A DNA stretch of 64,000 nt from the sequence record PV287714.1, one strand, 5' to 3'. The stretch is from Escherichia phage HMD-9. Shown piece by piece: positions 2,244 to 55,613 of the stretch. The notes under the pieces are model-generated. The model searched no databases. It worked only from the letters and a program-made list of their open reading frames with translations, and was not told the origin of the DNA. Position numbers and translations under genes: made by a program. Each line of letters begins with the position of its first letter. Positions within the stretch are counted from its first letter, which is position 1.

Positions 2244-2273
2244 ATTATACCACATCCTTGTGGTAAAGTAAAC
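2244..2273 (-). promoter_or_regulatory. T4-type early promoter (GTTTAC -35, 18-bp spacer, TATAAT -10)
   Basis: Reverse complement reads GTTTACtttaccacaaggatgtggTATAAT; near-identical copy at 46938-46967. Confidence 0.6.
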
Positions 2274-4093
2274 TACTGGCTCATCCATTCTTTACGAAGG
2301 TCAGCATTATCTCCCATGAGCATTTCAAAAAGCTCTTTCCAATTCTCAGGAAGTTTAACAACATCATATACTGGATTTTGAATCATCTCACGATATTCAG
2401 ATTTTTCCAAAGAGCCAAGTCCCTTAATATAACGGATGCTATGTTTAGGTAGAGCATCTTTAGCACTCTCATATTCAGCGACTGTATAAAACCATTCTTG
2501 TTTTTTACCGACCTGAGCGATGATTACAGGAGTTTTGACAAAGCGAATTCTTCCTTGTTCAAACAGTTCTGGCCAATTACTAAAAAATCCGAGCAAAGAA
2601 GGATAAATGCTTCCTAGACCATCATGGTCAGCATCGGTCATAATAGCAATATTATGATAATTCAAGTTTTCGGCTTTTTCACCAAGAACTAATCCAGTGA
2701 TTGCGCAAATATCAAACAGTTCTTTGTTTTTAAGCATATCAGCATATGACATACCCCAACTGTTGAGAACTTTACCACGCAATGGATAACCGCCATGAAG
2801 TTCTTTATCACGAACATCAATAAGATATCCAATAGCCGAATCACCCTCAGTCAAGAAAAGAGTAGTGTCAGCATCTTTACCACAAAGATTCGCTTTAATA
2901 TGTTTATGAACCTTAGCTTTAGAAACCTTTTTAGCTGCTTTAGTTTCTGCTGCTTTTTCTGCCGCCAATTTACGAGCCAAGGCAGCTTCAATAATTGGCA
3001 TTAAAATTGCTTCATTATTTAAAATAGCACGTGAAATCTTTTTAGCATCAAGCTGAATATGACTACGAATTTCACCAAATGGAGAAGTCAGACGCTCTTT
3101 AGTTTGAGAGTCAAATCGCATGTTTTTCATATCACGAACAAACATAACGATAGTCAAACATTCTTTAACACGTGCTTTAGTTACGTCAATTTTAAATTTA
3201 CGTTTGATTTGTGGAATAAGGTCTTCACAAATATCATCCATAACACAATCAATATGATGGCCACCATTCTTAGTATGAATGTTATTGACGTATGTTAATT
3301 GACGAAAACCATCCGGCGAACGACCAACCGCAATAGAACAGTTTTCTTGTTCTTGAACGATAGCATGCTCATCATATTGGCGTGCATATTTCTTAAAATT
3401 ACCCTGAACCTTTTTACCATTAAAGGTAAATTGAATATCAGGATAAACTACTGCAAGTGTCTGGAGACGATCCAGTGTAATGTCAAGATAAACTTGAGAC
3501 AGCTCATTAGTTTCAAATGACATAAAATCAGGAATGAAAGTAACGCGAGTTCCTTTCCATTTTCCAGGAATATCTTCCCACGATTTATTTTCCATGCCGT
3601 TTGAACAACGAACTACAATATTATTTTGACCGTCGCCAGTTTCACCGACAAACATCACAGAAAAAATGTTAGTTAAACTAGAGCCAACACCGTTCATACC
3701 GCCAGTGACGCGTTCTTTGTCATCACCGAAGTTACCACCTGCTTTTGGAATAGTCCAGGCAGCAACAGGACCAGGAATTTCTTCACCGGTAGGTGTTTTA
3801 ACCATCGCCTGTGGAATACCACGACCGTTATCTTCAACTGTTACTTGATTGTTTTTGATAGTAACATTAATTTTATTTGCGAATTTAAACTTAGTACGAA
3901 TACCTTCATCTACTGAGTTATCGATAATTTCATCAATAAGCTTAACAAGACCAGGTACATACTGAACACTTTCCCATTTACCAAACAGAAAGCGCTCATG
4001 CATTTCATTAGCAGAAGAACCAATGTACATGCCGCTACGCTTTTTGATATGTTCAATATCGCTCAGAATTTTAATTTCATTCTTAATCATCAC
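2273..4093 (-). CDS. 39: DNA topoisomerase II large subunit gp39, unsplit 606-aa form (GyrB-like ATPase plus the part that is gene 60 in T4)
   Basis: 606-aa track ORF; N-terminus MMIKNEIKILSDIEHIKKRSGMYIGS and EDNGRGIP GyrB motifs; continuous through the region split by gene 60 in T4. Confidence 0.9.
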   Translation of the reverse strand: MMIKNEIKILSDIEHIKKRSGMYIGSSANEMHERFLFGKWESVQYVPGLVKLIDEIIDNSVDEGIRTKFKFANKINVTIKNNQVTVEDNGRGIPQAMVKTPTGEEIPGPVAAWTIPKAGGNFGDDKERVTGGMNGVGSSLTNIFSVMFVGETGDGQNNIVVRCSNGMENKSWEDIPGKWKGTRVTFIPDFMSFETNELSQVYLDITLDRLQTLAVVYPDIQFTFNGKKVQGNFKKYARQYDEHAIVQEQENCSIAVGRSPDGFRQLTYVNNIHTKNGGHHIDCVMDDICEDLIPQIKRKFKIDVTKARVKECLTIVMFVRDMKNMRFDSQTKERLTSPFGEIRSHIQLDAKKISRAILNNEAILMPIIEAALARKLAAEKAAETKAAKKVSKAKVHKHIKANLCGKDADTTLFLTEGDSAIGYLIDVRDKELHGGYPLRGKVLNSWGMSYADMLKNKELFDICAITGLVLGEKAENLNYHNIAIMTDADHDGLGSIYPSLLGFFSNWPELFEQGRIRFVKTPVIIAQVGKKQEWFYTVAEYESAKDALPKHSIRYIKGLGSLEKSEYREMIQNPVYDVVKLPENWKELFEMLMGDNADLRKEWMSQ

Positions 4094-4142
4094 TTATCCT
4101 CGTTTGGTTTCGGGAATATTATACTCCAATAATCATAAAGCT

Positions 4143-4160
4143 AAAGGCCCGAAGGCCTTT
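4143..4160 (-). terminator. GC stem-loop with UUCG tetraloop (intercistronic hairpin/terminator) followed by TTGGAGTATAAT and gene 39 RBS
   Basis: aaaggcc-cgaa-ggccttt on plus strand, flanked by T run; same hairpin class recurs at least 8 times in window. Confidence 0.5.
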
Positions 4161-4977: not shown

Positions 4978-5397
4978 TTATTCCTTAAAGTGAGCTTTCA
5001 ACATCTGATACAAAGACCATGCTTGTTCATTATTTTCAATAGTAACTTTCATTACCGGGAATTCTGTGAAATCTTCTATTTGTTCTTGCTCTTCCTGCTC
5101 TTGTTCTTCAGCAGCCTGATATGGATTTTCAACTTCATCAAAGAACCCAGCTTCGTTAGTAGAGAGCCAGATAAAGTTTTCATCAAGGATATCACCGCCG
5201 GCACAACGTTTGAGTACACCTATGGATGTCATAATTTTAGTAGGACGCCCAAGATAATCAGCATCTAAAATTTTAAAAGGTTCCATACCTAAACGTCGTG
5301 CATAGATTCCGTTATCAGTATGGTCTTTAATAAAATTTTCTTGAGCTTGTTTATTTTTAAATTGATACCATTTATTAACTTCAAATTTAATAGCCAT
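4978..5397 (-). CDS. hypothetical acidic protein with EQ-repeat (goF-like position)
   Basis: 139-aa track ORF; [10 protein letters not shown] tract; position matches goF in T4 gene order (memory only). Confidence 0.55.
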
Positions 5398-5612
5398 TAA
5401 TAAATTTCCTTCCAGTAAGTTGTGCCATCTTCAGTAATTTCACGAAATACACCATAAATTGGCTGTTTATCACCGACTTTCTCATACACATAAACCGAAG
5501 TCAAGTGAGTAAACTTGCTAGTATGTTCCTTTTGAACTACTACCAAATCTGGATCGAATAATACATCTTCAAATTCATCATTAGTGCAATTCTGAACAAT
5601 TTTACGTTTCAT
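5397..5612 (-). CDS. hypothetical 71-aa protein (cef-like position)
   Basis: 71-aa track ORF adjacent to motB; size and position match T4 cef from memory. Confidence 0.5.
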
Positions 5613-8638: not shown

Positions 8639-9958
8639 TCATACGTAAAACACATCATAACGACCACGAGTGACACCAACATAAAGAAGCTGCTGTGCTA
8701 GTTCAGCATCTGCATAATGAATACAAGGCGTATAAATGAAAGCACGGTCTACAGACATGCCCTGTGCTTTATGGAATGTTGATGCAGGAAGTGCTTTCAC
8801 TTTACTAAACTGTGATTTAGCATCCCAAAAATCACTCCACGGAGCTTTTCCGCCTTTATTCCAATTTTTATAAGTTTCTGCCGTTTTACCTAAAAATAAG
8901 TTAAACTTATACAGCTCTTCATCAGATGAAATTATTTTAATCTTTTCACGATAATATTCATCATCGCCGTAAGTTTCTACTGTTAAATCCCAATGACGAA
9001 TTAAGTATTCTCCAGAAACACCACGAGCTTTAACAAAGGTTGATGTATACTCTGCTTCTATAATACGAACTAATTGTCCGTTATTAAAAATAATTTCTGA
9101 CACAGGCTTTCCATCAATTTTATATGTTTTAATTAATGGTTCCTGCATTACAATAATTTCACCAACGATAAAATCTTTATCAGTTTCAAAAATCTTTTTA
9201 CGAATAATGCTATTTAACTTGTCAACAGATTTATTCGTAAATGCCATTACACGATTTTCAAACAAATCATCTAGTGATTTTACGATTGAAAAATAATTTA
9301 CCATAAAATCGCGTAAAGCGGTATCACCAGTAAATCCACGTACTCCATGTCCGTCAACAATTTTATCATAAATCCACTTACCATTACGAACATCAGTAGC
9401 TACATCAATAATAGGAGCATTACTGCGTTTAACTTCAGTGAGTTCACACTGATAAAAATCTTTGTGCGTAAAGAATGGACTGATATAAGCAGTGTTTTCT
9501 CCTGGGTCAACAGGTCTAATTTGCTTATTATCGCCTATTCCAATTATAGTACACCAAGGTGGAATAGTTGAAAGCAGAATTTTAAATAGCTTTCTATCAT
9601 ACATTGATACTTCGTCGCAGATTAATACTCTGCATTTAGCCAAATCCGGTACTTCTTTTTGCTCAAAAAGAACATTTTCTTCGTATGTTACTGGGTTAAT
9701 TTTAAGAATACTGTGAATAGTACTCGCTTCTTTCCCTGACAGTTTTGAAAGAATCTTTTTAGCTGCATGAGTAGGAGCTGCTAAAATAATGCCAGTTTCG
9801 CCCGTAGATATTAAAGCTTCAATGATGAACTTAGTAAGAGTAGTCTTACCGGTACCAGCAGGTCCATTAATAGTTACATGATGTTTCTTTTCTTTAATAG
9901 CCCTCATAACGATGTTAAAGGCATTTTTCTGGCCTTCTGTCAAATCATCAAATGTCAT
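8639..9958 (-). CDS. dda: Dda DNA helicase (SF1)
   Basis: 439-aa track ORF; Walker A GPAGTGKT; length and sequence match T4 Dda. Confidence 0.95.
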   Translation of the reverse strand: MTFDDLTEGQKNAFNIVMRAIKEKKHHVTINGPAGTGKTTLTKFIIEALISTGETGIILAAPTHAAKKILSKLSGKEASTIHSILKINPVTYEENVLFEQKEVPDLAKCRVLICDEVSMYDRKLFKILLSTIPPWCTIIGIGDNKQIRPVDPGENTAYISPFFTHKDFYQCELTEVKRSNAPIIDVATDVRNGKWIYDKIVDGHGVRGFTGDTALRDFMVNYFSIVKSLDDLFENRVMAFTNKSVDKLNSIIRKKIFETDKDFIVGEIIVMQEPLIKTYKIDGKPVSEIIFNNGQLVRIIEAEYTSTFVKARGVSGEYLIRHWDLTVETYGDDEYYREKIKIISSDEELYKFNLFLGKTAETYKNWNKGGKAPWSDFWDAKSQFSKVKALPASTFHKAQGMSVDRAFIYTPCIHYADAELAQQLLYVGVTRGRYDVFYV

Positions 9959-14486: not shown

Positions 14487-14516
14487 ATTATACCATACTC
14501 ATTTTGGAAAGTAAAC
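14487..14516 (-). promoter_or_regulatory. T4-type early promoter
   Basis: Reverse complement GTTTACtttccaaaatgagtatggTATAAT. Confidence 0.6.
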
Positions 14517-14530
14517 CGGTAAAATGAAAA

Positions 14531-14552
14531 AAGGACTCCCAAAGGAGTCCTT
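14531..14552 (-). terminator. rho-independent terminator downstream of soc
   Basis: aaggactcc-caaa-ggagtcctt hairpin followed on minus strand by U run. Confidence 0.6.
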
Positions 14553-18287: not shown

Positions 18288-18316
18288 AACAATCTCCTCA
18301 TTTAACCAACAAGACT

Positions 18317-18346
18317 ACTATACCATAGTCTTGTCAGCTTGTAAAC
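18317..18346 (-). promoter_or_regulatory. T4-type early promoter
   Basis: Reverse complement GTTTACaagctgacaagactatggTATAGT. Confidence 0.55.
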
Positions 18347-19782: not shown

Positions 19783-20145
19783 TTAAAAGAATTTAAATTT
19801 TTTCTTTGACCTTTTATTAAATGCATCTTGTAGTTGCATTGTAATACATTTTTCTACATGAGGAGCTAACTCAGCTTTTCTTTCTTGGTCAAGAACAGCA
19901 AAGTCCATTACGACTTTTCCATCAACCCAATCTAATTTTGTCACATACACAATGTGTGTAGAACCATCTTCTAGTTTAATGACAATCTCCTGGATAACAT
20001 TTTCCATGGCAGATTTAATTATCTTAAGAGATTCATTAAAAAGACGTTCTTTTCTTTCTTCTTCCCCCTCCGAAGAGGGGGATTCATCGATAATTTCTAG
20101 ATCTAAATCTAAATCATCTTTATTCATTAAATTCTTCCATATCAC
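19783..20145 (-). CDS. 40: gp40 head vertex assembly protein
   Basis: 120-aa track ORF between uvsX and 41. Confidence 0.6.
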   Translation of the reverse strand: MIWKNLMNKDDLDLDLEIIDESPSSEGEEERKERLFNESLKIIKSAMENVIQEIVIKLEDGSTHIVYVTKLDWVDGKVVMDFAVLDQERKAELAPHVEKCITMQLQDAFNKRSKKKFKFF

Positions 20146-24280: not shown

Positions 24281-24368
24281 AGTTTTGTGAAAAAATTTTT
24301 AATGAATTCAAAGGGCCCAGAATCATCTATTTTTCCTAAGTATAGATTTATATTACTTGTATGAAAAA

Positions 24369-24384
24369 GGGACCTGGAGGTCCC
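24369..24384 (-). terminator. rho-independent terminator downstream of gene 43
   Basis: gggacc-tgga-ggtccc hairpin, U run on minus strand. Confidence 0.55.
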
Positions 24385-24397
24385 TAGATTTATTCTA

Positions 24398-27094: not shown

Positions 27095-27152
27095 AGATAT
27101 TCCTTAGTTTATAGCCCGAGTTATTAGGCTCTTGATATATTATACTCCAAAT

Positions 27153-27170
27153 AAGGGGCCGAAGCCCCTT
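27153..27170 (-). terminator. UUCG-tetraloop GC hairpin followed by TTGGAGTATAAT upstream of gene 43
   Basis: aaggggc-cgaa-gcccctt. Confidence 0.5.
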
Positions 27171-27172
27171 GC

Positions 27173-27394
27173 TTAAATTAATACCAGCTGTCGGTGAAAA
27201 ATTGTTAATCCATCTGCATTAATTGACTTAACCACTGCGGTAAAGTGTTTTTGTTCTGGGTGAACTAATTTTTGAAATTCTACCTGAAATTTTAGTTGGA
27301 GATTTTCTGGTAAATCAAAAAGTGTTTCTGTTGCAGAAAGATTATATTTTTCTTTAAGAGACGCCATGTATTCTTGTGGGGTTATAGCAGTCAT
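27173..27394 (-). CDS. hypothetical small protein between regA and 43
   Basis: Track ORF trimmed to ATG immediately after regA stop; 73 aa. Confidence 0.4.
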   Translation of the reverse strand: MTAITPQEYMASLKEKYNLSATETLFDLPENLQLKFQVEFQKLVHPEQKHFTAVVKSINADGLTIFHRQLVLI

Positions 27395-29290: not shown

Positions 29291-29324
29291 AATTTCCTCA
29301 TTCAAGTTTTAGTGCAAATTATAA

Positions 29325-29338
29325 AGGGCCGAAGCCCT
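29325..29338 (-). terminator. UUCG-tetraloop GC hairpin between genes 45 and 44
   Basis: agggc-cgaa-gccct. Confidence 0.5.
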
Positions 29339-29341
29339 CTA

Positions 29342-30028
29342 TTAAAAGTCGTGGGTAGAATCAGCTTCAAGAGCTACTACATAATTCGCGTGTTCACCTT
29401 CAAATTTAGCAGCGCCTTGTTTACCTTTTGCCCAGAGCAGAAGTTTATAATTTCCTGGTTGCATTTTCATATTTGCCATATTGATAATGAAATTAAATGT
29501 ATTTTCACCATCATAATCACCAAGAGTCAAAGAATATTTAACACGGGTCAAAGCGGAATCTTCTACTTTATTAAAACCGTTAATTACGATTTTACCTTCT
29601 TTTACTGTGATAGCAATTGTATCAATCTGCAGACCACGAGATACACGCAACAGCTGTTGAAGGTCTTCAGCTTTAATTTCAGTAACAACAGATGCTACCG
29701 GGAATGGAATTGGTTTATTAGGAGCAACTACTGTACTCGGATCGGCTGCCGGCCAAAAAATTGTTGAACGGGCATCAGCAATTTTAATATTACCATCTTC
29801 TGACTGGGAAATTTCTGCATCATCATTAACTAGAGACAGAATACCGAGAAAACCGTTCAAATCGTAAATTGCTACATCAAAATCAATAGTGTCAGAAATA
29901 TTTGCTTCCGCATAAGTTGTACCATTAACCGCGCGAGTCATAATAAATTGACCGGATTTAAGCATAATACCAGAGTTAATAGTAGCGAAATTTTTAAGCA
30001 GAGCAGTAGTATCTTTAGACAGTTTCAT
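29342..30028 (-). CDS. 45: sliding clamp gp45
   Basis: 228-aa track ORF; matches T4 gp45. Confidence 0.95.
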   Translation of the reverse strand: MKLSKDTTALLKNFATINSGIMLKSGQFIMTRAVNGTTYAEANISDTIDFDVAIYDLNGFLGILSLVNDDAEISQSEDGNIKIADARSTIFWPAADPSTVVAPNKPIPFPVASVVTEIKAEDLQQLLRVSRGLQIDTIAITVKEGKIVINGFNKVEDSALTRVKYSLTLGDYDGENTFNFIINMANMKMQPGNYKLLLWAKGKQGAAKFEGEHANYVVALEADSTHDF

Positions 30029-30671: not shown

Positions 30672-30726
30672 GTTTTTCCTCCATAGAGATTATACTCTAA
30701 TAAATTAAAGCATAATCTCTTATAAA

Positions 30727-34473: not shown

Positions 34474-34610
34474 ATATCAAGAACCGTCATTGAAATGCAA
34501 AATAAAATTATTGAAATAAATCCATCTGGAGTGCTAAAGAACCCAATCCAACATGCTCTAGTGAATAGATAAAATGCGAGAAAAAGTATCACATATCCAA
34601 GAAATATCAT
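34470..34610 (-). CDS. small hydrophobic peptide, 46 aa
   Basis: ORF below track cutoff with GGAG SD; stop overlaps seg ATG (ATGA); AT-rich so may be chance. Confidence 0.25.
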   Translation of the reverse strand: MIFLGYVILFLAFYLFTRACWIGFFSTPDGFISIILFCISMTVLDI

Positions 34611-34633
34611 TATATCAAACTCCGTATAAAGCT

Positions 34634-34651
34634 AAAGGGCCGAAGCCCTTT
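34634..34651 (-). terminator. UUCG-tetraloop GC hairpin overlapping alpha-gt stop codon
   Basis: aaagggc-cgaa-gcccttt. Confidence 0.5.
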
Positions 34652-35852
34652 ATTTTGTAATAATGTCAAACTGCTCTTTAAAGCAGAAGCTTGAATCTTG
34701 ATGCTGATACAAAAATTCATAAGCTTTTTCACGTTCACGGTCATAAAGAGCTCGGTCAGATGACAGTTCTTTAATACGTTCAAATGTTGATTCCATGTCA
34801 TTTTCATCAAACCAAACGATACCGCTATCATGAGAAATTAATGGAGTATTATCAACACGGAATTTTAAATTTTCGCCCGTAGATTTCCAAAATACTGGAA
34901 TTGTTCCACATGCACCAAGCTCGAGATGAGTATATTCTAAAGAACGTTGTAGATATTTTTTATCTAATTTACTCAGCTGATAGCCAAATCCGGATTTACT
35001 CATGCGTTCAAGCATTTCGCTATTTACGTAACGGTCAAGAATTTGCGTTGGCAAATTAGGAGCAATTTTAATTTGGTCTACTTGATGAAGACGATAATAC
35101 TCGTATGGAATTCCTTTTTCTTTAATAGGAATGAATGCTGGAGAACGTTCCAGACCTTCCATAATAGTACTTAGTCCTGCAGGTTTAAGATGTTTTTCAT
35201 GAAAATCAAACATCTGATAAAAGCCTTTCCATGTAGTAGTACGACCAATCCAACGGTTGATATTCATGTTAATTTCAGAAACATCTTTCCAGTAGGTTGA
35301 TCGAACCTTCGCAATATCCATAGGAGGCTGAAAGTTATATACGGTCGGTGCTTCTTCAATATCATCAAACAGAGAAACAGTTTCCGGATACCATTCTTTC
35401 ATCAAAACTTTATTAAAGTCACCATTATCAGAATGGCTAAAAATAACATCAGCTCGACGAACAGTTTCTTCTAATCCCAAATTTCGACGCAAAGAAAGAG
35501 AAGAATGGTCATGCTGATAAACTACAACACGAACCGAAGGTTTAATGTTATCAATAATTTTTTTATAGTTATTAATGGTGTCTTCTTCTACTGAAGTAGC
35601 AGGAACTGAATTGATAATTAAAATATCGCAATCATTTACCAGTTTAAGTGTTTTATCGTATTCTTTTGCCAATAAAACCGGAATTGAAAATGACTTATAA
35701 TCATGTGCGCAATTACGAGTAAATGATTTATCTTTAGCATAAACCAAAGTTACTTCATGACCATTTTTAATAAACCAATCACGTTGCTCAAGAGAAAATT
35801 TAGTTACACCGCAACCTTCAAGACCTCGAGCCATAAAAATACATACTTTCAT
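34650..35852 (-). CDS. agt: DNA alpha-glucosyltransferase
   Basis: 400-aa track ORF, MKVCIFMARGLEGCGVTKF...; matches T4 AGT. Confidence 0.95.
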   Translation of the reverse strand: MKVCIFMARGLEGCGVTKFSLEQRDWFIKNGHEVTLVYAKDKSFTRNCAHDYKSFSIPVLLAKEYDKTLKLVNDCDILIINSVPATSVEEDTINNYKKIIDNIKPSVRVVVYQHDHSSLSLRRNLGLEETVRRADVIFSHSDNGDFNKVLMKEWYPETVSLFDDIEEAPTVYNFQPPMDIAKVRSTYWKDVSEINMNINRWIGRTTTWKGFYQMFDFHEKHLKPAGLSTIMEGLERSPAFIPIKEKGIPYEYYRLHQVDQIKIAPNLPTQILDRYVNSEMLERMSKSGFGYQLSKLDKKYLQRSLEYTHLELGACGTIPVFWKSTGENLKFRVDNTPLISHDSGIVWFDENDMESTFERIKELSSDRALYDREREKAYEFLYQHQDSSFCFKEQFDIITK

Positions 35853-35876: not shown

Positions 35877-35901
35877 ATTTTACCAAAAATTTATAAAGCA
35901 A
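35877..35901 (-). promoter_or_regulatory. MotA-dependent middle promoter for alpha-gt
   Basis: Minus strand TTGCTTTA, 11 bp, TAAAAT. Confidence 0.5.
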
Positions 35902-35902
35902 T

Positions 35903-35922
35903 ATAGGAGCCGAAGCTCCTAT
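35903..35922 (-). terminator. UUCG-tetraloop hairpin
   Basis: ataggagc-cgaa-gctcctat overlapping stop of upstream small ORF. Confidence 0.5.
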
Positions 35923-36092
35923 CCGCATAATACGCCATACAGAGGCTCATTAGAGCTTCTAAATTTTATACGCTTATATGTTATAGTTCCTTCTGCTTTA
36001 GCTTTATCATGAGACTCTTTAAAGCGTCTCATCATTTCTACTTTAGAGGAACGAATTTTATTATAATCTATTTCAGAAGTCTGGGTGTTCAT
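35919..36092 (-). CDS. hypothetical small protein, 57 aa
   Basis: ORF below track cutoff, ATG 3 nt after stop of upstream ORF. Confidence 0.35.
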   Translation of the reverse strand: MNTQTSEIDYNKIRSSKVEMMRRFKESHDKAKAEGTITYKRIKFRSSNEPLYGVLCG

Positions 36093-36586: not shown

Positions 36587-36805
36587 TTATTTCTCTAATA
36601 TAAAATAAAAATCATCATCTGTTAAATGATACCGATAGTTTAATTCTACACCATTAGATTTAAAAGCGGTATCATACGGATTTTCTGGATCAATATCAAT
36701 GTCAAGAGCTAAAACTTCCCTGAGATACATTTTAAGTAAATAGGGAATAGCTTCAACTTCAGGTATTTCTTCCAAGAATCCGGAGAGGTTAATCGTTAGC
36801 CTCAT
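36587..36805 (-). CDS. hypothetical small protein
   Basis: 72-aa track ORF overlapping gene 55 end. Confidence 0.45.
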
Positions 36806-38235: not shown

Positions 38236-38273
38236 ACATTATCCTCAATTGCATTAAAATTTTATTATCCAAA

Positions 38274-38289
38274 AAGGGCCGAAGCCCTT
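38274..38289 (-). terminator. UUCG-tetraloop GC hairpin
   Basis: aagggc-cgaa-gccctt. Confidence 0.5.
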
Positions 38290-51336: not shown

Positions 51337-51386
51337 TATCAGTAGTTGATAGTTGTATAGTACCATAAAGCTTTATGCTTGTAAAC
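51337..51386 (-). promoter_or_regulatory. PeSL-type early promoter cassette
   Basis: tatcagtagttgatagttgtatagtacca...cttgtaaac; first 29 bp identical to copy at 24231. Confidence 0.6.
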
Positions 51387-51411
51387 CGTTTTGTGAAAAA
51401 ATTTTTGAAAT

Positions 51412-51439
51412 AAAAAAGGGGACCTCTAGGGCCCCCTTT
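51412..51439 (-). terminator. rho-independent terminator
   Basis: ggggacc-tcta-gggcccc hairpin flanked by A run and T run. Confidence 0.55.
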
Positions 51440-51447
51440 GTGTTGAT

Positions 51448-51933
51448 TTATTCCATTTCTACTATATGCATGTTCTTTTTGCTATCAAAATATATGTTTT
51501 TAACTATTAACTCAGAATTAATTGGCAGTAAAAACTCTCTTTCATAATCTACCATACAAAGGTTATCATAAAGCTTGTTAAGCTTATCATCGTCAATTTG
51601 ACCAGATTCTTCAATTGCGATTAAATTTTCTAAAATGTCAATCATAGCAGTCGAATAGTCGAAAACGTTTGCATTTTTTAACACTACTAAAACATTAGTC
51701 ATATAGCGTTCTGCCGCAAACGTTTCAGCTATATGAGACTCACTGCTAAAGGAAGTTATTCTTTTAAATTTGATTCTCCTATTAACTTCAAACTTATAAG
51801 ATAGCACTTCCTCTATTGTAAGTCCTCTAAAAAGTGTGTCTTTAATCTCAAGTTTGTCTTTAATGTAATCATTAACACGCTTATGATTAAAATCATTAAT
51901 TTTGTTGCCAAGGCATTGCATTAAAATATGCAT
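51448..51933 (-). CDS. hypothetical protein
   Basis: 161-aa track ORF. Confidence 0.5.
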   Translation of the reverse strand: MHILMQCLGNKINDFNHKRVNDYIKDKLEIKDTLFRGLTIEEVLSYKFEVNRRIKFKRITSFSSESHIAETFAAERYMTNVLVVLKNANVFDYSTAMIDILENLIAIEESGQIDDDKLNKLYDNLCMVDYEREFLLPINSELIVKNIYFDSKKNMHIVEME

Positions 51934-51979
51934 TGTATTCTCCTCAATTTTTAAAGAGCAATTAATTAACTACACATAT

Positions 51980-52009
51980 ATTATAATATGCTTTGCGGCA
52001 GAAGTAAAC
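51980..52009 (-). promoter_or_regulatory. T4-type early promoter
   Basis: Reverse complement GTTTACttctgccgcaaagcata TTATAAT. Confidence 0.5.
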
Positions 52010-52038
52010 AACTTTGTGACGTCATTTTAAACAAAAAA

Positions 52039-52056
52039 GGGAGCCCGAAGGCTCCC
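52039..52056 (-). terminator. rho-independent terminator (UUCG tetraloop) downstream of nucleotidyltransferase-like gene
   Basis: gggagcc-cgaa-ggctccc followed by U run on minus strand. Confidence 0.6.
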
Positions 52057-52058
52057 TA

Positions 52059-54617: not shown

Positions 54618-54752
54618 AATTACATACTCCTTTGAATAATATCAATAATGTTGTTCACTAGATTATAAGTAAACATTGGGTGATAATATTGAATCATCAC
54701 ATACACAACAAACAAAATTTTCATTCTCTTCTCCTTGGCAGTTGACAAGATT

Positions 54753-54782
54753 ACTATATCATAACCTTGCCAACTTGTAAAC
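54753..54782 (-). promoter_or_regulatory. T4-type early promoter
   Basis: Reverse complement GTTTACaagttggcaaggttatgaTATAGT. Confidence 0.55.
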
Positions 54783-55595: not shown

Positions 55596-55613
55596 AGTCT
55601 CCCGAAGGAGACT
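55596..55613 (-). terminator. rho-independent terminator (UUCG tetraloop)
   Basis: agtctcc-cgaa-ggagact followed by U run on minus strand. Confidence 0.55.

Follow-up and report, generated by a model that had tools for sequence, protein, structure and literature searches.

CUUCGG hairpins are abundant in the intergenic regions of bacteriophage T4, where they were first described by Tuerk (1988, PNAS 85:1364), and the unusual stability of the C(UUCG)G loop was shown in the same work by reverse transcriptase stops (both statements as cited in PMC8948821 and PMC3972237). Intergenic stem-loops of T4, such as terminators, often carry this stabilizing UUCG tetraloop (Durand et al., PMC1702504). The closest described cassettes are the PeSLs, intergenic elements that consist of a stem-loop and an early promoter (TTTACW, N17, TAYWAT in T4 and PST) (Arbiol 2010, PMC2839356; Comeau 2014, PMC4122927), the stem-loops of which were effective terminators in reporter assays in RB49 (PMC2839356). 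PeSLs and their Mot box form, the PmSLs, are enriched beside indels (PMC2839356, PMC4122927); the PmSLs on record come from Vibrio phage nt-1 and not from T-even phages (PMC4122927). Transcription of T4 middle genes starts at MotA/AsiA-dependent promoters, in which the MotA box, with the consensus (a/t)(a/t)(a/t)TGCTT(t/c)A, is located 12 ± 1 bp upstream of a sigma-70 -10 element (TAnnnT) (PMC2988021).

The DNA analyzed here is a stretch of 64,000 nucleotides from Escherichia phage HMD-9 (PV287714.1), referred to below as the window. It comes from a T4-like Tequatrovirus with ~96% identity to the nearest records; a 6-kb slice of it matched 742 phage records, the best of them at 96.8% (Escherichia phage LH2 and other Tequatrovirus genomes). 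When mapped onto T4 (NC_000866), the window spans the early and middle region, from rIIA to about vs/regB. It has a GC content of ~34% and a GC skew that is negative throughout, and essentially all of its long ORFs are on the minus strand, so that the relevant RNA is the minus strand and CGAA in the plus strand corresponds to UUCG in RNA. The large subunit of topoisomerase is encoded by a single 606-aa ORF (2273-4093, minus strand), in which genes 39 and 60 are fused; accordingly, the gene 60 translational bypass element with its UUCG take-off hairpin, as well as mobA, are absent. Promoters and terminators are not annotated in the T4 reference records NC_000866 and AF158101. The hairpins and promoters of the window are listed in Table 1.

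Table 1. Hairpins, promoters, and operator discussed in the text (positions in the window; MFE, predicted minimum free energy)
Feature	Position	Strand	Description
C(UUCG)G hairpin, 7 bp	4143..4160	-	Starts at the gene 39.1 stop, upstream of the fused 39/60; MFE -10.7 kcal/mol
Predicted P39-type middle promoter	4118..4145	-	MotA box TTTAGCTTTA 4136-4145; 12-nt spacer with GGAG; -10 TATAAT 4118-4123
soc 3' terminator hairpin, 9 bp, UUUG loop	14531..14552	-	Followed by U6; loop is UUCG in T4
Early promoter after hairpin 14531	14487-14516	-	GTTTAC 14511-14516; TATAAT 14487-14492
C(UUCG)G hairpin, 8 bp	20063..20082	-	In gene 40 CDS, 38 nt past the uvsX stop; ~-16 kcal/mol
gp43 translational operator hairpin	27113..27130	-	Positive control for covariation; described in PMC3014915
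-10 of predicted P43-type middle promoter, TTGGAGTATAAT	27139..27150	-	-10 at 27139-27144; start near 27134
C(UUCG)G hairpin, 7 bp	27153..27170	-	After the extra ORF past regA, upstream of gene 43
C(UUCG)G hairpin, 5 bp, perfect	29325..29338	-	Between genes 45 and 44; MFE -13.2 kcal/mol
C(UUCG)G hairpin, 8 bp	34633..34652	-	Overlaps the a-gt stop, upstream of 47.1/47; homologous to T4 36607-36626
Predicted P47-type middle promoter	34609..34636	-	MotA box TTTAGCTTTA 34627-34636; 12-nt spacer with GGAG; TATAAT 34609-34614
C(UUCG)G hairpin, 8 bp	35903..35922	-	After a-gt.2; MFE -16 kcal/mol
Predicted PmobB/Pa-gt.1-type middle promoter	35877..35902	-	MotA box ATTGCTTTA 35894-35902; 11-nt spacer; -10 TAAAAT 35877-35882
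C(UUCG)G hairpin, 6 bp	38274..38289	-	Between 55.3 and 55.2; followed by UUUUUGG
C(UUCG)G hairpin, 8 bp	52038..52057	-	After nrdC.11; followed by U6; MFE -18.3 kcal/mol, z -4.1
T4-type early promoter	51980..52009	-	After hairpin 52038; GTTTAC 52004-52009, 18-nt spacer, TATAAT 51980-51985
C(UUCG)G hairpin, 7 bp	55596..55613	-	After rI.-1; followed by U6

In a census of the whole window that admitted 4-nt loops and perfect stems of 5 bp or more, nine UUCG hairpins were identified in the minus-strand RNA, versus 0.32 ± 0.58 (maximum, 3) in 500 dinucleotide-preserving shuffles. All nine have perfect stems of 5-8 bp and the C-G closing pair (CUUCGG), and in all of them it is the transcribed strand that reads UUCG. 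The plus-strand RNA contains one UUCG hairpin only (at 9229), with an AT-only stem, which is consistent with chance. UUCG is the commonest tetraloop of the census: other loops are found at most 4 times among the perfect-stem hairpins and at most 3 times among those with GC-rich stems, and GNRA loops show no enrichment. The sequence-only reading that preceded this analysis had listed eight intercistronic hairpins with a GC stem and a cgaa loop in the plus strand. All of these were recovered, each within 1 nt of where it had been placed, and proved to be perfect GC-rich stems of 5-8 bp that carry CGAA in the plus strand and hence C(UUCG)G in the minus-strand RNA; a search with the consensus pattern SSSCGAASSS gave 7 occurrences in the window versus 0.65 expected. 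The ninth UUCG hairpin (20063-20082, inside gene 40, at about codons 15-21) and a UUUG-loop homolog of the T4 soc terminator (14531-14552) were absent from that list. A search of the window against Rfam at gathering thresholds gave no match.

Eight of the nine hairpins begin -4 to +4 nt from the stop codon of the upstream gene (binomial P ~1e-13; seven of these distances were computed, and the eighth, for hairpin 35903, was taken from the ORF 35919..36092, which is outside the computed ORF set), and the base of the stem is often built from the A residues of the stop codon. The predicted MFE structure of the 40-nt context is the hairpin itself in every case, with energies from -10.7 to -18.3 kcal/mol. 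Among the ~20 strong minus-strand hairpins located just past stop codons in an energy ranking, 8 have UUCG and 1 has UUUG loops, so that UUCG is the plurality choice and not the sole one. A 16-mer, AGGGCTTCGGCCCTTT, is found in three identical copies (29323-29338, 34634-34649, and 38273-38288, minus strand), which form the cores of the hairpins at 45/44, a-gt/47.1, and 55.3/55.2, respectively; the third of these hairpins is missing from T4. If A-U and G-U pairs are included, the 45/44 hairpin spans 29321-29342, with a stem of 9 bp.

The window also contains strong hairpins of other kinds. The three most stable local ones (54740-54775, 18304-18339, and 30685-30720, minus strand; 15-16 bp, ~-17 to -18 kcal/mol) closely precede Shine-Dalgarno sequences and include elements that resemble those of promoters; in the 30685-30720 hairpin, a MotA box (ATGCTTTAA) pairs with the -10 element (AGAGTATAAT). 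A non-UUCG terminator-like element, AGGGACC-UCCA-GGUCCCU followed by U5 (24368-24385, minus strand), is found 12 nt past the gene 43 stop and precedes a late-promoter-like TATAAATC.

The UUCG hairpins of the window share with those of T4 the loop, the C-G closing pair, the intercistronic location, and the phage group. T4 has perfect-stem UUCG homologs of 7 of the 9 hairpins at matching positions (for example, T4 5381-5398 for the 4143-4160 hairpin), and its 45/44 homolog is a G-U variant. Nothing essential differs between the two sets: the window has the additional hairpin 38274, in place of which T4 has a 13-nt intergenic spacer, lacks the gene 60 bypass hairpin, and has UUUG in the soc terminator. 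The latter loop fails the C(UUCG)G criterion; the stem, the U6 tract, and the downstream early promoter are otherwise as in T4. The occurrence of C(UUCG)G hairpins at the ends of T4 genes is therefore a real observation and one that is already well described. In the GenBank entries of close relatives, the 4143 hairpin has independently been annotated as a putative terminator (phage G8) and the adjoining stretch as a promoter (phage Lutter).

Conservation of the hairpins was examined in homologous loci drawn from viral contigs; in the gene 43 set, the gp43 N-termini were 59-100% identical. Upstream of gene 43, a hairpin is found at the same place in 19 of the 20 loci, with stems that include GGGGC/GCCCC, GGGCC/GGCCC, GGGAC/GUCCC, and GGGAG/CUCCC and loops UUCG, UCCG, or UACG (CUGUGU in one lineage). 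Between genes 45 and 44, a hairpin is present in all 18 loci, with unrelated stems (GGGC, GGGCC, GGUC, GAGCC, and GGCC) and UUCG or UACG loops. Because picking the best hairpin in each locus is circular as a test of pairing, these picks were used only to catalog stems and loops, and only the alignment-based count is a fair test of covariation. In the MAFFT alignment of the gene 43 hairpin (14 distinct sequences), both-sided changes are seen at 4 of the 7 stem pairs, and 91% of the cells are paired; the covariation score is 0.32 versus 0.13 in shuffled alignments (0 of 500 reach the former value), and it collapses when the partners are slid. The gp43 translational operator, which has compensatory changes across relatives, such as C-G to A-U at the third stem pair, served as the control in the same alignment, and the covariation of the UUCG hairpin is at least as good. 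Upstream of gene 39, the hairpin is retained in near-identical relatives only, whereas distant homologs have plain sigma-70 promoters.

The hairpin in gene 40 is a case of its own. Its position is kept across very divergent T4-like phages (loci L087-L126), sometimes as an intergenic one, with unrelated stems and encoded peptides; the loops found at this position in relatives include UUCG, UCAG, UAAG, UGAU, AAAC, GGAA, GAAA, and GAGA.

The orientation of the hairpins in the whole T4 genome points the same way as the covariation. All 15 GC-rich UUCG hairpins in regions with minus-strand genes read UUCG in the minus strand, and the late block, with its plus-strand genes, has a single strong UUCG hairpin (106536, just past gene 23), which reads UUCG in the plus strand. 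The orientation of the hairpins in T4 thus follows that of the genes, which indicates that the constraint acts on RNA and argues against a purely DNA-level palindrome. Stem pairs of the G-U type, found at 45/44 in T4 and in three loci of relatives, are likewise sensible on the transcribed strand only.

The tracts that follow the stems divide the hairpins into two groups. With at least 5-6 U in the 8 nt directly past a GC-rich hairpin taken as the criterion of a terminator, U-rich tails are found at 52038 (7 of 8), 55596 (6 of 8), and 14531 (6 of 8), and hairpin 38274 is followed by a run of 5 U, the end of the stem included. U-tracts are weak at 35903 (5 U in 8 nt), 4143 and 34633 (4 each), and 29325 and 27153 (3 each; the tail of 29325 reads UUAUAAUUUG), and there is not a single U in the 8 nt past hairpin 20063. 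The five hairpins with weak U-tracts are therefore probably leaky, and intrinsic termination is doubtful both there and at 20063. The combination of a GC-rich stem with a U-run is shared with bacterial intrinsic terminators, from which the present set differs in that a full U-tract is found in only ~4 of the 10 hairpins of the window and that one of them lies within a CDS. UUCG loops are reported to be over-represented among E. coli terminators too (d'Aubenton-Carafa et al. 1990).

The sequence-only reading had proposed that the hairpins probably terminate transcription or stabilize RNA and are coupled to promoters at which transcription restarts, and it would have fallen if transcript ends did not coincide with them. 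At least one such coincidence is on record: Kim et al. (2025, PMC12152347), in a statement that cites Hinton 1989, place an in vivo RNA 3' end directly past a stem-loop within the 358 nt that precede gene 41. In the stretch between the uvsX stop and gene 41, the UUCG hairpin 20063-20082 is the only strong isolated stem-loop, and it is probably the one referred to in that statement. A search of the literature found no genome-wide T4 3'-end or Term-seq map. The proposed function is supported by this 3' end, by the U-tracts, by mapped promoters (see below), and by the annotations of relatives. Per-site termination efficiency and stabilization, as well as the split between termination and protection from exonucleases, are given here as we infer them.

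The promoters that follow the hairpins are, in part, known ones. The identical sequence noticed earlier before genes 39 and 43 is TTGGAGTATAAT, present at 4118-4129 and 27139-27150, i.e., 13 nt past the gene 39 hairpin and 2 nt past the gene 43 hairpin; the T4 copy before gene 39 reads CCGGAGTATAAT, which reduces the shared core to GGAGTATAAT. The -10 elements in these copies belong to the mapped MotA-dependent middle promoters P39 and P43 of T4 (PMC2988021), in agreement with the suggested restart promoters. The transcription starts of P39, P43, P47, and PmobB have been mapped in T4 to 5349, 29933, 36576, and 38682, respectively (Hinton 2010, PMC2988021, Table 1). In T4, the ends of the homologous hairpins are at 5381, 29952, 36607, and 38715, which places these starts 32, 19, 31, and 33 nt downstream of them; at the four sites, the window is 93-98% identical to T4. 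The window has the same -10 elements as these T4 promoters (Guild 1988; PMC2988021), with the box at 11-12 nt in three of them. The sequence-only reading described the hairpins as often fused to a -10 element; what they abut are whole promoters, made of a MotA box and a -10 or of a -35 and a -10. The MotA promoter is a neighbor of the hairpin and not the hairpin itself.

The MotA boxes predicted next to hairpins 4143 and 34633, both of which read TTTAGCTTTA, have one mismatch each to the consensus (T to A) and begin within the 3' arm of the stem, and the predicted start of the P39-type promoter is near 4111. The ATTGCTTTA box, which likewise fits the consensus, begins directly past the stem of hairpin 35903, after which a-gt comes next, since mobB is absent from the window. 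Because the box begins in or at the stem in all three cases, the same U/T-rich bases double as the tail of the RNA hairpin and as an activator site in DNA. These three sites (4143, 34633, and 35903) fit the PmSL form, a stem-loop with a Mot box and a -10. The PeSL form, an intergenic stem-loop followed by an early promoter, a Shine-Dalgarno sequence, and a start codon, fits hairpins 52038, 14531, and 51415, the latter with a non-UUCG loop; the PeSL stem-loops of PST and T4 (AGNA-loop-TCNT), however, are not specifically UUCG hairpins. At 55596, the -35 of the early promoter that is found at the homologous T4 site has been deleted, and TGATACTAT remains. Downstream of hairpin 38274, there is no recognizable promoter.

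The P43-type site differs from the other middle promoters in lacking the canonical box. A pattern scan found no MotA box at 12 ± 1 nt from its -10, and such a box was rejected. The only GCTT near -30 is that of the tetraloop, GCTTCG (27160-27165), which is 15 nt from TATAAT both here and in T4; in three lineages of relatives that have no separate box, the loop is 13 nt from the -10, and further lineages have a separate box past the hairpin. A doubtful possibility is that the P43-type tetraloop, (G/A)CTTCG, itself serves as the MotA core, that hairpin-MotA units are the T-even counterpart of the PeSLs, and that GGAG cleavage by RegB discards early read-through RNA while sparing middle RNA. If true, the same six base pairs would specify the structure at the 3' end of one RNA and also the activator site of the promoter that follows.

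GGAG sequences occupy positions ~-16 to -13 of the P39-, P43-, and P47-type promoters (4124-4127, 27145-27148, and 34620-34623, minus strand), and the one upstream of gene 43 is conserved in relatives (loci L004-L023). In early RNA that reads through, GGAG would agree in part with the RegB site GGAGRAYARAA; transcripts that start at the middle promoters do not contain it.

Several hairpins mark the places where the window and T4 differ in gene content, with junctions exactly at hairpins 27153, 35903, and 52038. Compared to T4, an extra 73-aa ORF of unknown function (27173-27394, minus strand; phrog_3826) is inserted exactly between the regA stop and the P43 hairpin. Both of its junctions share GGTA(A/T)T..TTAA, and other relatives have different ORFs that end at the same hairpin. 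Another extra ORF, 51448-51933 (minus strand), matches the RNA polymerase ADP-ribosylase family phrog_832 in part and is absent at this place in T4. It is bracketed by two cassettes of a hairpin and an early promoter, with the hairpins at 52038-52057 (UUCG) and 51415-51439 (CUAGA loop), in the region 51357-52057. This layout fits the pattern of PeSL-flanked insertions, and the positions of the junctions suggest that recombination may have occurred at the hairpin sites of the window.

Such junctions are the main argument for regarding the hairpins as DNA palindromes or cruciforms that serve as recombination joints or protein-binding sites, with the RNA structure being incidental: several hairpins are located exactly at gene-content differences from T4 (27153, 35903, the ORF 51448-51933, and 38274), the 16-mer AGGGCTTCGGCCCTTT is identical in its three copies, and the PeSL papers propose recombination at hairpin-promoter cassettes (PMC2839356, PMC4122927). 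A palindrome, however, has no cause to keep TTCG on one particular strand, and all 16 GC-rich cases in T4 follow transcription. Neither would it hold the loop to UNCG while the stems change, nor contain G-U pairs, which are A-C mismatches on the opposite strand. This explanation is accordingly judged very unlikely, and cassette recombination is compatible with the RNA function and secondary to it. It is hardly conceivable that the recurrence reflects base composition and chance or a set of protein-binding operators similar to the gp43 or RegA sites. Chance does produce short GC-rich palindromes in long sequences, and a real operator hairpin is located 23 nt downstream of one UUCG hairpin; against this, none of the 500 shuffles reached even four UUCG hairpins, versus nine observed, and the positions at stop codons are highly improbable by chance. 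As nothing beyond C(UUCG)G is conserved across the sites, a common sequence-specific protein site is unlikely. Chance and DNA-only palindromes were rejected on the basis of the shuffle, position, covariation, and T4 orientation tests.

A closer competitor holds that the hairpins do not terminate transcription at all and are exonuclease barriers that set the RNA ends after cleavage by RegB (at GGAG) or RNase E, with read-through by RNA polymerase. In its favor, hairpins 4143, 27153, 29325, and 34633 have weak U-tracts and 20063 has none; three hairpins (4143, 27153, and 34633) have a GGAG 5-20 nt downstream, which is kept beside the -10 in relatives; RegB is known to cleave GGAG in early transcripts (PMC3014915); and T4 middle genes are partly expressed through the extension of early transcripts (PMC2988021). 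The textbook U5-U7 tracts at 52038, 55596, and 14531 and the ability of PeSL stem-loops to terminate transcription in reporter assays (PMC2839356) do not agree with this scheme. In addition, GGAGUAUAAUA fits just part of the RegB 3' consensus GGAGRAYARAA, and cleavage by RegB or RNase E at the hairpin sites was not found documented in the literature examined. As a general explanation, this scheme appears rather unlikely; for the hairpins with weak tails, a pure role in processing and stability is reasonable as a partial alternative.

It is highly probable, then, that C(UUCG)G RNA hairpins placed after stop codons define the 3' ends of the transcripts upstream of them and shield these ends, through termination where a U-run is present and by blocking exonucleases elsewhere, and that in most cases a promoter then restarts transcription. 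The hairpins would form in the minus-strand transcripts directly after the stop codons. RNA polymerase would terminate at the hairpins with U-runs, 52038, 55596, and 14531, and probably at 38274. At 4143, 27153, 29325, 34633, and 35903, with their interrupted U-tracts, and at 20063, which has none, termination would be partial at best, and these weak-tail hairpins would mainly block 3'-to-5' exonucleases, giving stable ends to the upstream mRNA. Transcription would be restarted by a T4 early promoter (GTTTAC, 17-18 nt, TATAAT) after the terminator-type hairpins, save 38274, and by a MotA/AsiA-dependent middle promoter after 4143, 27153, 34633, and 35903. As a block of genes would in this way be both insulated and restarted, hairpin-promoter units may, as PeSL and PmSL cassettes, make convenient recombination joints.

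What the sequence-only reading rediscovered is a real and functional textbook feature of T4 gene organization, and the current understanding of it is unchanged. The window adds examples of compact coding, such as a flank that serves both as a terminator tail and as a MotA box and a conserved hairpin within the CDS of gene 40. The least-explored aspects are the tetraloop DNA as a MotA box at P43 and the hairpin-MotA box units as shuffling cassettes of T-even phages. For the annotation of Tequatrovirus genomes, the hairpins are reliable markers of transcription-unit boundaries, which also flag mapped promoters (P39, P43, P47, and PmobB) and likely recombination joints.
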